From a bacterium (lineage in GTDB: Bacteria > Patescibacteriota > Microgenomatia > Daviesbacterales > UBA10151), in assembly GCA_021786315.1 (NCBI GenBank), contig JAJYNN010000002.1:462997-526996 (forward strand): DNA of 64,000 bases, written 5' to 3'. Made by a program: the position numbers and the translations under genes. Below are positions 7,262 to 62,919 of this stretch, one piece after another (the stretch's first letter is position 1; each line of letters opens with the position of its first letter). The notes beneath the pieces were generated by a model that saw nothing but the letters and a program-made list of their open reading frames with translations, was not told where the DNA came from and ran no database searches.

Positions 7262-7435
7262 CTTGAGGTATCTGTGAAGATGGAGTAAAATGCGTGGGAT
7301 AAGGGATAAGTATTATGGAATATGGGTTCGAAAGATTTTTGTCCCGTAATACATACTACATGCCCCATTTCCCAAATAAAAAGGGCACTTTAAGTAGTTA
7401 TACACACGAAGCGTGGAACTACTGCAAGTGATCAA

Positions 7436-12754: not shown

Positions 12755-12941
12755 GGAATGCTAAAGATATCAGAATAAATCACTTGTAGAGGGGTTGAGC
12801 TTGAAGATTTTTGGAGCGGGAGACGGGATGATCACTCCTCGCTGCGTTCGGAGTTGAACCTACTTAGCTCTGCGAGATGCGTATATTCCAAATGCGGGTC
12901 TTACTCACAAAAAATCAGCCACAAGGGCCGACATTTTTATG

Positions 12942-13013: not shown

Positions 13014-13181
13014 GAACGTTAGTGAGCGGTGAGCACTTCCGCAGCCAATTTTTGGTTGGCGAGGAGTACTCCCACATTTTGGTGCCGCAGCCTGGAATAG
13101 GGCTACTCGCTAAAGCGAGATCCTGTTCCTGTCTGCTTCAAAATTTGTCTTTGCTGACACAAGGTCAGCACGACAAACTTG

Positions 13182-13435: not shown

Positions 13436-13488
13436 TCGCTTTGCTCGGTCACTTGCGATAGTTCCGCTACGCGTGTAACTATCTAAAG

Positions 13489-13582
<94 letters not shown>

Positions 13583-15534: not shown

Positions 15535-15705
15535 AATTGGAGATTACACCTTCCACTAACTGGAATGTCAAGAGGTAAAATAGTGCTGTGGGACATGGAT
15601 TAGGGCTACTTTGACTTCGTCAAAGATCCTGTCAAGCTTCGCTTGATCGAACCCGCTTCCTTGTGCCAAGAGCGCGGATTCTCGGTTCAAAAGCACCAAA
15701 TACCA

Positions 15706-15739
15706 AAAATCCAGCCACAAAAGGACTGGATTTTTGCTA
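15706..15739 (-). terminator. Hairpin plus U-tract immediately 3' of tRNA-Gln (also reads as a hairpin plus T5 on the + strand)
   Basis: AAAAATCCAG..loop..CTGGATTTTT stem followed by a T-run. Confidence 0.5.
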
Positions 15740-48076: not shown

Positions 48077-48105
48077 GTGATCCTGTACTTATACCTTTTT
48101 TGCAG

Positions 48106-48978: not shown

Positions 48979-49060
48979 GACAATGTAATCAGACACAGCA
49001 AACCCGCTTATAATACCTTTAAGTAGTTACCAGGATCAGAATTTGATAAAATACCCATAT

Positions 49061-49133: not shown

Positions 49134-49230
49134 CAAATTCAAAATTTGGGGTTTGCCTCCTAATTTTGAATTTACTCCTGGGTAGTCAGAATCCTCTTTG
49201 GGGTTTACATAATTTTCGCAGAAAATTACA

Positions 49231-49312
49231 GGATCGTTTTGACGAAGTCAAAAGGTAGCCCATTAGACAATGCGTTGTCGCAGGATCGTTTTGACGAAGT
49301 CAAAAGGTAGCC
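49231..49312 (+). repeat. Two direct copies of a 32-nt palindrome-containing unit (CAGGATCGTTTTGACGAAGTCAAAAGGTAGCCC) separated by 18 nt, immediately followed by a mature-like copy of the tRNA-Arg 3' end
   Basis: The two copies are identical; the unit is the same motif family as those downstream of tRNA-Phe and tRNA-Gln. Confidence 0.7.
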
Positions 49313-49382
49313 CTAATCCCTCCGGGCGCGCCACCCTATCTCCTTGCTTCCCAATCCAAAGATAGATTACTATTAAACTGAT

Positions 49383-50525: not shown

Positions 50526-50597
50526 GAGCGGGATAGGGGGATCGAACCCCTGACATTCTGCTTGGAAAGCAGACGTTCTACCGCTGAACTAATCCCG
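50526..50597 (-). tRNA. tRNA-Gly (anticodon TCC)
   Basis: RC reads GCGGGATTAGTTCAGCGGTAGAACGTCTGCTTTCCAAGCAGAATGTCAGGGGTTCGATCCCCCTATCCCGCT. Confidence 0.85.
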
Positions 50598-50705
50598 CGA
50601 GTGTTACGAGCGAGGTTAGTGAAGTGGCAGGACCAGTCTGAAAGACTAGCCTACCGCCGAACTAATCCCGCAATAGGAAGTATTTTACCAAATTTTACTT
50701 AAAAT

Positions 50706-54434: not shown

Positions 54435-54638
54435 AATTTACGCACAAATTGGTCTATTTTGATATAGTTGACAAGATTCAAATAATAGTGTATTATTACT
54501 TCACTTATTAACCGTAAGGCTAATAAGTATTTACTTACAAGCCGCAAGGCGAGTGAGTTCTCGAAAAAGGTCCCGCAAGGGACTTTTTTCGTGGAAAACA
54601 ATAGCCTTTTACCTTATAAACTGATAAAATACTCATTA

Positions 54639-54698
54639 TCGTGGTGGCTGTAGCTCAGCGGTAGGCTAGTCTTTCAGACTGGTCCTGCCACTTCACTA
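54639..54698 (+). repeat. 26-nt copy of the tRNA-His 5' end (tcG-1 plus acceptor plus D-arm to GCGGTAG) fused to a 34-nt element GCTAGTCTTTCAGACTGGTCCTGCCACTTCACTA, 14 nt upstream of the real tRNA-His
   Basis: Exact identity of 54639..54664 with 54709..54734; the 34-nt element recurs in inverted orientation next to tRNA-Gly(TCC). Confidence 0.7.
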
Positions 54699-54712
54699 CA
54701 TTCCCACTTCGT

Positions 54713-54788
54713 GGTGGCTGTAGCTCAGCGGTAGAGCGCCTGCCTGTGGAGCAGGATGTCGAGGGTTCAACTCCCTTCAGCCACCCCA
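54713..54788 (+). tRNA. tRNA-His (anticodon GTG) with encoded G-1 and encoded CCA
   Basis: G GTGGCTGTAGCTCAGCGGTAGAGCGCCTGCCTGTGGAGCAGGATGTCGAGGGTTCAACTCCCTTCAGCCACCCCA. Confidence 0.85.
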
Positions 54789-62311: not shown

Positions 62312-62919
62312 CTCCTTTATCTAAAAGACATTCTAGAGCTTATAGTTAAAAAAGGAGTGAGCTACATGTAAGAAAAGATTATGATTGCAAAGTAATCTCA
62401 AGTTTTGACCATAACTGCTTCAAATTGGATTTGTTATTTGGGGTGAACTATTATCCGGTTTGACTATGGATGAAGCCAAAGTCGGCAGAGCAAAGAAAAC
62501 CAAAAAAGTAATAATCATAAAAATTAAGAGTCCAACTAAAAACCCAATTTCAAATCCTTGTGTATCAGCCGCTATCATTGGTGGAAATCCGGGGTCGGTT
62601 TTTACATCTGGTGTATCATCTTGAAGCGGGGCGTCCATACAAATTTGTGAAAATTGTCAAACTGCCCCTTTTCACGGCTGTGCCTGTAACAGCGTTAAAA
62701 AGTATGAGTTGTGGAGTTATAGGGCTACCTTCGGCTTCGCCGAACGATCCTGTAATTTCTCTCCGCCAAAAGCGGATCGAAATTATTGACCTATTGCCTA
62801 TAATCCCCGCAGCTCTAACCTTTTGTGGCAGTAACTTTTTGAGAGTCATCTTCGTTCCTTTCAACCGCAATATTAGTCCTTTTTGTTGAAAGAATTACGA
62901 GGGGTGTGTAATAAAAATG

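Follow-up and report, generated by a model that had tools for sequence, protein, structure and literature searches.

Putative insertion-derived leader hairpins built from tRNA 5′ ends in a Daviesbacterales genome

A 64,000-nucleotide stretch of contig JAJYNN010000002.1 (assembly GCA_021786315.1, forward-strand positions 462,997 to 526,996; Patescibacteriota, Microgenomatia, Daviesbacterales), hereafter the window, carries partial copies of the 5′ ends of its transfer RNA (tRNA) genes tRNA-Gly(TCC) and tRNA-His(GTG) immediately upstream of these same genes, each joined to an identical sequence of 34 nucleotides (nt), GCTAGTCTTTCAGACTGGTCCTGCCACTTCACTA. At both loci the predicted unit is a hairpin of approximately 70 nt, of which this 34-mer forms the middle. 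We propose that each is an insertion-derived leader hairpin, co-transcribed with its tRNA and removed by ribonuclease P (RNase P), and that both stem from a process specific to Microgenomates that produces hairpins at gene ends, a reading to which we assign even odds (probability roughly 0.5). Bacteria of the candidate phyla radiation (CPR) have tiny genomes with single-copy tRNA genes, and in this window about half of the tRNA genes carry partial copies of themselves joined to small hairpins.

The 34-mer has exactly two sites in the window, at 50617-50650 on the minus strand and 54665-54698 on the plus strand; no further copy was found even at three mismatches, and none of 100 shuffles gave a match. 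At the His locus, positions 54639-54664 and 54709-54734 are identical at 26 of 26 positions, and 14 nt separate the end of the 34-mer from G-1 of the gene. The Gly copy matches its gene at 21 of 22 positions when an ambiguous G at 50650 is counted, and at 20 of 21 without it. In both cases the junction between copy and 34-mer lies right behind GCGGTAG, with an ambiguity of 1-2 nt. The inserts measure 45-53 nt and contain no open reading frame (ORF). Each locus reads, in order, as promoter, tRNA copy (A), apex, imperfect inverted copy (A′) and the real tRNA, which itself starts with A (table 1). An initial annotation, made from the letters of the window, had drawn attention to the shared 34-mer on opposite strands, to the near-identical Gly copy and the perfect His copy including G-1, and to the common junction, all of which stand. 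It had also named beforehand what would speak against it, namely that the 34-mer is a general genomic repeat; beyond the two copies in the window we found none in the species representatives of GTDB or in IMG/VR.

Table 1. Features of the Gly and His leader loci and of the 3′-side modules. Positions are those of the window; M tip, the conserved hairpin tip of the 3′-side modules.
Feature	Position	Strand	Remarks
tRNA-Gly(TCC), functional	50526-50598	-	ARAGORN and Rfam, 71.6 bits
Gly locus-specific spacer ACCTCGCTCGTAACACTC, 18 nt	50599-50616	-	directly before tRNA-Gly(TCC)
Gly inner 3′ arm CTGCCACTTCACTA, last 14 nt of 34-mer	50617-50630	-	pairs with D-arm part of 5′ copy
Gly apical stem-loop GCTAGTCTTTCAGACTGGTC, first 20 nt of 34-mer	50631-50650	-	
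Gly 5′ arm, copy of tRNA-Gly(TCC) positions 1-21	50651-50671	-	20/21, A14 to G
tRNA-Gly(TCC) promoter, putative -10 box TAAAATAC	50680-50687	-	8 nt upstream of 5′ copy
tRNA-His promoter, putative -10 region TGATAAAATAC	54622-54632	+	upstream of 5′ copy; aligns with L028 and L030 promoters
His 5′ arm, leader TCGT + G-1 + tRNA-His positions 1-21	54639-54664	+	perfect 26-nt copy
His apical stem-loop, first 20 nt of 34-mer	54665-54684	+	relative L028 has only AGGAAACCT here
His inner 3′ arm CTGCCACTTCACTA, last 14 nt of 34-mer	54685-54698	+	
His outer 3′ arm and spacer CATTCCCACT, then duplicated leader TCGT + G-1	54699-54713	+	CCCAC pairs with GGUGG of copy
tRNA-His(GTG), functional, CCA encoded	54714-54788	+	ARAGORN and Rfam
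tRNA-Gly(GCC) 3′-end copy behind different module (M2), then CA	12814-12829	-	
tRNA-Phe 3′ module, M tip CAGGATC-hairpin-GTAGCCCTA + copy of 59-74, then CA	13082-13125	-	
tRNA-Gln(TTG) 3′ module, M tip + copy of 59-74	15585-15631	-	1 mismatch
tRNA-Arg(TCT) 3′ module, two tandem M tips + copy of 59-74, then CA	49229-49331	+	

The whole leader, taken from the first base of the copy up to the 5′ end of the tRNA, is predicted to fold as one long hairpin at both loci, at -34.4 kcal/mol for His (z = -5.0) and -33.4 kcal/mol for Gly (z = -5.7), with none of 200 shuffles folding as well in either case. Each locus has a spacer of its own, which pairs with the equally locus-specific acceptor strand (CCCAC with GGUGG at His; CUCGC with GCGGG at Gly, within the first 7 nt of the spacer), so that the 3′ arm as a whole is best described as an imperfect inverted copy of the 5′ part of the tRNA. 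Measured against the exact reverse complement of the 5′ arm, it is identical at 14 of 21 to 17 of 26 positions, and the common 14-nt arm contains CCACT, which complements AGTGG, whereas His and Gly have AGCGG. The tRNA-sense strand of the Gly leader folds better than its antisense (-33.4 versus -26.1 kcal/mol) owing to G-U pairs, which fits a structure acting in the transcript, and when the complete His precursor is folded in silico, hairpin and tRNA acceptor stem are predicted next to each other as independent structures. On these folds the unit is the hairpin of approximately 70 nt, and the 34-mer, which the initial annotation had treated as a discrete mini-element, is its 20-nt apex joined to the opening 14 nt of a 3′ arm running on into the spacer.

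The first 7 nt of the Gly spacer also resemble the tRNA 3′ end (ACCUCGCUC versus AUCCCGCUC), as would be expected if each leader had arisen by tandem duplication of the entire tRNA gene and decay of the upstream duplicate, of which the 5′ end and a degenerate 3′ acceptor strand survived while the middle was lost. We regard this as barely credible: an identical 34-mer at two tRNAs cannot come from independent decay, the 14-nt arm is a D-arm complement with no homology to any tRNA interior, neither ARAGORN nor Rfam reports a second tRNA, no anticodon or T-arm similarity is present, and a related locus (L028, below) has the same arms around an apex of only 9 nt.

The position of the putative promoters suggests that the hairpin is co-transcribed as the 5′ leader of the precursor tRNA. 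A motif of the TGATAAAATAC type lies 6-10 nt ahead of both 5′ copies and not ahead of the real tRNA 5′ ends; tRNA-Arg and tRNA-Leu(tag) are preceded at the same distance by this type of motif, with which the promoters of orthologous loci align. Between a gene of approximately 580 amino acids and the His hairpin lies a further small-RNA-like unit (approx. 54468-54592, plus strand), in which a strong sigma-70-type promoter, TTGACA-17-TATTAT, is followed by three hairpins with CGYAAGG loops, the last of them a terminator. Sequence similar to this unit occurs upstream of tRNA-His in L028, L030, L033, L034 and L036, where the terminal CCCCGCAAGGGG-T-run terminator recurs, joined in L033 by the first hairpin; it matches no Rfam family, and a weak shape match to RNAI reaches 28 bits against a cut-off of 47 bits.

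Under the reading we prefer, an insertion of approximately 45-70 nt would have come to lie between the tRNA promoter and the mature 5′ end, with the promoter upstream of the copy, so that the structure would be transcribed as the leader of the precursor. A and A′ would be made first and snap into a hairpin, which would keep A′, complementary also to the 5′ half of the real tRNA, from disturbing tRNA folding. RNase P would then cut at the true 5′ end and free the hairpin. Lost pairing would free an anti-tRNA strand, an ‘addictive’ logic under which the arms would be conserved, and the unit could exit only whole, by recombination between the two A repeats (a precise deletion). Conserved arms combined with loss of whole units only would give the all-or-nothing presence seen among relatives.

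This presence was followed in eight orthologous or related loci, retrieved via homologues of DinB, which is encoded in the neighbourhood together with a sortase, a cohesin-domain protein and a HIT protein; the nearest DinB homologues have at most 72% identity and come from genomes named Daviesbacteria, Levybacteria or Microgenomates. Their tRNA-His gene stands behind the same gene of approximately 580 amino acids. In six of the eight related genomes (L030, L031/L032, L033, L034, L035 and L036) the site is empty and tRNA-His follows its promoter directly, at 8-13 nt, while the 5′ copy at tRNA-Gly(TCC) is absent in all four other genomes in which that gene was compared (L031, L033, L035 and L013). 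The site is filled in L028, where CGGTGGCTGTAGCTCAGCGGTA-AGGAAACCT-TGCCACTTTGCTACATTTCCACTTCGTG precedes the tRNA and the apex is AGG-AAA-CCT (9 nt) in place of AGG-CTAGTCTTTCAGACTGGT-CCT in the window. Empty and filled orthologous sites mark the hairpin as an insertion or a precisely deletable unit. The same 9-nt apex with a matching arm recurs in L028 at tRNA-Arg(TCT), as a 57-nt insert relative both to L030 and to the tRNA-Arg of the window, and the L028 hairpins at His and Arg fold at z = -5.6 and -4.1, respectively. One version of apex and inner arm is thus common to two tRNAs in each genome, to His together with Gly in the window and with Arg in L028, and all of these arms depart in the same way from a perfect complement, with CTGAG changed to CTTYR, and all have CCACT. 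This argues for copying of a module between loci over independent local events, and the sequences point to such copying between tRNA leaders within a genome. The tRNA-Arg(TCT) of L028 (7929-8050) has, besides its leader hairpin, a 3′ copy, ATCCCTCCGGGCGCGC, behind a different tip; an identical tRNA-Arg(TCT) in L030 has neither.

Between the window and L028, the 3′ arm and spacer at tRNA-His are identical at 25 of 29 positions (86%), against approximately 68% for coding DNA (L028 and L030 share approximately 76% with each other, and either shares approximately 68% with the window). The arm is thus as conserved as the tRNA itself, which fits selection for pairing. The initial annotation had spoken of a tRNA-associated insertion scar formed through 5′ identity; insertion and 5′ identity are borne out by the empty sites, whereas ‘scar’ understates an arm kept to this degree between distant genomes. 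Such conservation would also be expected of a selected regulatory or decoy RNA, in which the mimic of the tRNA 5′ half would act as an attenuator-like control of maturation or as a stable small RNA titrating a nuclease or modification enzyme. The 5′ copies track their own tRNA (in L015 and L016 they mirror changes at acceptor positions 4 and 7), the sense strand gains from G-U pairs, and the three segments A, A′ and A would permit alternative pairing. The structure is nevertheless dispensable, being missing at six of eight tRNA-His orthologues and wherever else tRNA-Gly(TCC) was examined; the Gly copy has changed A14 to G, the apex varies between genomes, 3′-side copies decay (one mismatch at Gln in the window, three in L020, a deletion in L014), and neither a ligand nor a protein partner is indicated. 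A selected RNA of this kind is in our view unlikely, though it deserves to be kept in mind.

Self-copies in the window are not confined to 5′ ends. Four tRNAs (Gly-GCC, Phe, Gln and Arg) are followed by a terminator-like hairpin, a conserved tip and then an exact or near-exact copy of their own 16 nt at positions 59-74; at Phe, Gln and Arg the tip is M. Every aligned 3′ copy begins at position 59 and finishes at C74, and in the modules of Phe, L020 and L024 an upstream arm pairs with the copy, giving the topology of the 5′ hairpins. The two types share one order (gene end, inverted arm, hairpin tip, direct copy), and the initial annotation's separation of a 5′ class from the 3′ class falls away as far as architecture is concerned. 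The displaced copy is followed by CA, and so ends in CCA, in 5 of 11 cases (12811-12813, 13079-13081 and 49332-49334 in the window; L024; L035). The functional genes next to these copies lack CCA; among the 13 tRNA genes of the window only two encode it, and the 11 that do not all keep C at position 74.

A covariance model, R1, built from 21 M tips, recovers the five in the window at 36-62 bits. The 34-mer and the M tips share only the loose pattern CAGGAYC-hairpin-AGCC (0.02 matches expected per shuffled window), and because R1 does not score the 34-mer, we claim for the two the same architecture and not homology. Reading the 34-mer as a reversed M tip was rejected for the same want of an R1 score, and the letters CAGG...CCTA that had suggested it are the closing pairs of the hairpin. 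The top-scoring M tip of the window (61.7 bits; 62720-62759, minus strand) lies just downstream of a DksA/TraR zinc-finger gene, and its 3′ flank has no copy anywhere in the window. CAGGATC heptamers also occur just upstream of the tRNA-Arg promoter (49031-49037) and between tRNA-Pro and tRNA-Leu(TAA) (48078-48092), the latter a weak covariance-model match (10.4 bits, E = 0.55). Terminators directly after tRNAs with 3′ modules have a common loop motif, CCTTGTG, on co-varying stems (12905-12935, 13140-13175 and 15700-15735 in the window; L013, L014 and L015); since this terminator is conserved across loci and genomes, it may belong to the inserted unit. An origin of the modules by simple 5′ truncation of a retroelement was rejected, as this left-hand hairpin is conserved. 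Both tRNA-Val leaders (7391-7435 and 13436-13497) contain a hairpin AGTT...AACT and a stretch that looks complementary to the tRNA-Val 5′ end, GCAAGTGA(C/T)C, and may be decayed examples of the leader architecture, although their similarity scores are not significant.

The fixed junctions have a parallel in reverse transcription. In this alternative, a hairpin RNA would be copied with a template switch to or from a tRNA, blocks at the modified bases 58 of the T-loop and 20/21 of the D-loop would set the inner junctions, and the hybrid complementary DNA (cDNA) would enter the gene, much as is reported for integration of the Mauriceville retroplasmid. All eight aligned 3′-side copies begin at 59, just past the classical stop at 58, the 5′ copies finish at A21 in His and Gly of the window, Thr of L015/L016 and Gln of L026, and CA (giving CCA) follows 5 of 11 3′ copies beside functional genes without CCA, where approximately 0.7 would be expected by chance. 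The His 5′ copy, however, includes 4 nt of leader and cannot derive from a mature tRNA, the Trp copy of L006 carries genomic GCA and not CCA, and the same architecture stands at the start codons of lepA and rplC (below). The CCA is explained equally well by a displaced gene end that encoded it, as in the tRNA-Gly of L031 and several tRNA-His genes, and no reverse transcriptase gene was seen in the sequence examined. Reverse transcription as the agent of insertion is thus improbable on balance.

The leader hairpins of the window appear to be part of something wider. Pattern scans located M tips, with co-varying stems, in genomes of Daviesbacteria and Microgenomates and in groundwater metagenomes. 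An M tip is followed by a tRNA 3′ end from position 59 in L006 (Trp), L024 (Gln), L020 (Trp) and L014 (Asp), by the first 27 nt of lepA in L023, and by the first 37 nt of rplC in L002, where a second, nested layer is present. Pattern matches in L004, L005, L012 and L009-L011 were set aside as chance, since they lack the flanking consensus of the family; those in L004, L005 and L012 we take, from their translation, to be a conserved coding segment of gyrB. In L003 (4990-5050) an M tip and an upstream hairpin form a 57-nt in-frame insert, TLGLPSPSVNDPVISRRLE, in the Fe/Mn superoxide dismutase gene sodA, with the reading frame and both Pfam domains intact. Copies of 5′ ends with other tips occur at Thr in L015, L016 and L006, at Gln in L026, and at Arg and Ser in L017, and fold as hairpins. 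In L017 (1700-2170, minus strand), tRNA-Arg(CCG) is preceded by three 55-nt units in tandem and tRNA-Ser(CGA) by two of 49 nt, and every unit consists of the first 15-18 nt of the tRNA and a linker folding back on them. Against the 21 and 26 nt copied at Gly and His in the window, gene-end copies elsewhere span 11-37 nt, and tip families are common to unrelated loci and genomes. In a survey of 43 tRNAs, from a sample biased towards loci selected for M tips, approximately 10 had 5′ copies and a similar number 3′ copies.

At the protein genes (L023, 3560-3710; L002, 100-290) the displaced gene start forms a pseudo-start ahead of the M tip upstream of lepA or rplC. Displaced and functional copies differ synonymously at four of four positions in lepA and seven of nine in rplC, and a simple target-site duplication was rejected for these genes because the copies differ almost only in this way. 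Copies that look as if they came from different lineages would be natural if the inserts were relics of a phage or island, integrated by a tyrosine recombinase with its own copy of the gene end and later stripped of its interior. Agreement would also come from the bracketing of foreign DNA by directly repeated tRNA ends, from the small cargo ORF that separates tRNA-Asp from its 3′ copy in L014, and from the serial relics nested in L002 and L026. We nevertheless think such relics very unlikely, since the inserts at both loci measure 45-53 nt and lack an ORF, one tip goes with different tRNAs that each have a copy to match, beyond the reach of a single attP, and the inverted arm has no role in att recombination; in addition, IMG/VR contains neither the M pattern nor the 24-nt core of the 34-mer, and no integrase is found among the ORFs tested.

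A conserved tip right before a variable stretch of 16-26 nt that matches a nearby gene also recalls an RNA-guide module, in which the tip would be a scaffold, like a CRISPR RNA (crRNA) repeat or a TnpB omega RNA, and the tRNA-derived stretch a guide homing the element to tRNA genes. The two tandem tips at tRNA-Arg, separated by a 19-nt spacer, have the appropriate look, and the matched sequence in the tRNA genes is preceded by TTC or CTC. The intact neighbouring tRNA gene would itself be a target, the copies drift from their targets, the putative guide would be sequestered by the upstream inverted arm, cas, tnpB and iscB genes are missing from the window ORFs tested, and there is no Rfam match. 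We rejected a TnpB- or Cas12-like guide with a TTC-type adjacent motif on account of the self-targeting of the adjoining gene and of no effector gene being seen, and consider any guide function highly improbable.

Searches for an agent or a precedent returned little. A Pfam scan of 40 proteins (36 window ORFs and four ORFs of related loci) reported housekeeping and cell-surface domains only, with no transposase (including HUH transposases), integrase, reverse transcriptase, Cas or TnpB domain. Rfam 15 reported only tRNAs at the gathering score and nothing usable at E <= 10, an exact search for the 24-nt core was also negative in the GTDB species genomes, and full-text literature searches produced no account of CPR bacteria in which partial self-copies of tRNAs are attached to hairpins. 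The rebuilding of gene ends by small hairpin inserts is apparently a lineage-wide habit not described before.

Several results weigh against the reading of these structures as insertion-derived leaders within a common gene-end process. The model R1 gives neither 34-mer a score even at E <= 10, which leaves the tip of the Gly and His hairpins untied to the M family, and a mobilising enzyme is encoded by no window ORF tested. Compared as DNA, the 3′ arms reach no more than 65-77% identity with a perfect complement, with modest shuffle P values (0.01-0.14). A generic sigma-70 promoter scan did not call the -10 boxes, so that we infer leader transcription from the arrangement of motifs; transcription start, accumulation of the hairpin and RNase P cleavage are likewise read from sequence. 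Finally, a 3′ arm that evolves as slowly as the tRNA between distant genomes fits a selected function equally as well as the neutral, ‘addictive’ model.

As to origin, a Microgenomates process would place hairpin tips at the ends of genes and add copies of the gene end in both orientations, one inverted and one direct, so that the gene stays whole, and within a genome one version of apex and inner arm would then be copied between tRNA leaders. Candidates for this process are a non-autonomous hairpin element with its enzyme, polymerase template switching combined with copying between leaders, and a route through reverse transcriptase; junctions that fall after 58 and 21, together with the CCA at 5 of 11 3′ copies, hint at the last of these. 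A bolder version, which we advance tentatively and judge unlikely as a whole, is an undescribed ‘self-repairing’ insertion mechanism, whether by reverse transcriptase, HUH nuclease or other means, that would plant tips after A21, A58 and at other gene ends and rebuild the ends by templated copying in both orientations, the resulting mimics of tRNA halves being expressed and retained for tRNA maturation or in a decoy role. Should the preferred reading of insertion-derived leader hairpins be right, selfish or replication-born hairpins can enter essential genes without killing them, and would give tRNAs a supply of new structured leaders on the 5′ side and trailers on the 3′ side. They would also be a hazard for annotation, in the form of pieces of tRNA, the pseudo start codons at lepA and rplC and the in-frame insert in sodA. 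The fixed junctions (after 21, after 58) and the CCA behind many 3′ copies make the mechanism directly testable.

Among known systems, the att-site duplications left in tRNA genes by tyrosine-recombinase islands and prophages are similar in having a partial direct repeat of the tRNA end beyond the inserted DNA, an intact gene and serial relics. They differ in that our inserts are hairpins of tens of bases without an integrase, use 5′ as well as 3′ ends, combine one tip with many tRNAs each with its own copy, and include an extra inverted copy that makes the hairpin. Repetitive extragenic palindromic (REP) elements and REPINs are palindromes mobilised by RAYT transposases, with conserved arms and a variable loop. 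Like them, the structures described here are short, abundant intergenic hairpins (approx. 70-110 nt) in lineage-specific families; unlike them, they conserve the tip, whereas the arms are copied from the neighbouring gene and differ by locus, and no RAYT was found. The Rickettsia palindromic elements, which resemble MITEs, the miniature inverted-repeat transposable elements, insert into genes, and the M tip in sodA of L003 likewise exemplifies a small non-autonomous hairpin repeat tolerated within a gene. MITEs have terminal inverted repeats of their own and a short target duplication of fixed length, in contrast to arms that are tRNA-derived and gene-end copies of 11-37 nt; with regard to dispersal, the 34-mer has two copies in these 64 kb and none in GTDB representatives or IMG/VR. 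M tips also recall the right ends of IS200/IS605 elements and TnpB omega RNAs in placing a subterminal hairpin approximately 9 nt from a sharp end with a variable flank, a likeness that does not extend to the 34-mer. IS200/IS605 elements make no target duplication, and neither tnpA nor tnpB was found.

Short-range template-switch (quasipalindrome) mutations create hairpins (PMC7954356). They generate an inverted copy beside its source in one step and could give A and A′; the direct copy, the tip families shared between loci and genomes and the identical 34-mer at two tRNAs would be left unexplained. In archaea, tRNA gene fragments and disrupted tRNA genes have been linked to integrated elements (PMC3293823), a similar case of mobile DNA generating partial tRNA copies next to tRNA genes; the archaeal cases concern split or intron-containing genes, whereas here the gene is intact and the fragment sits within a leader hairpin. 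Duplications at att sites, REP elements and REPINs, MITEs in genes and template-switch hairpins are the nearest concepts, and each departs from the present structures in at least one defining respect. We place the inserts among small palindromic insertion elements, with a real chance that the mechanism underlying them is new.

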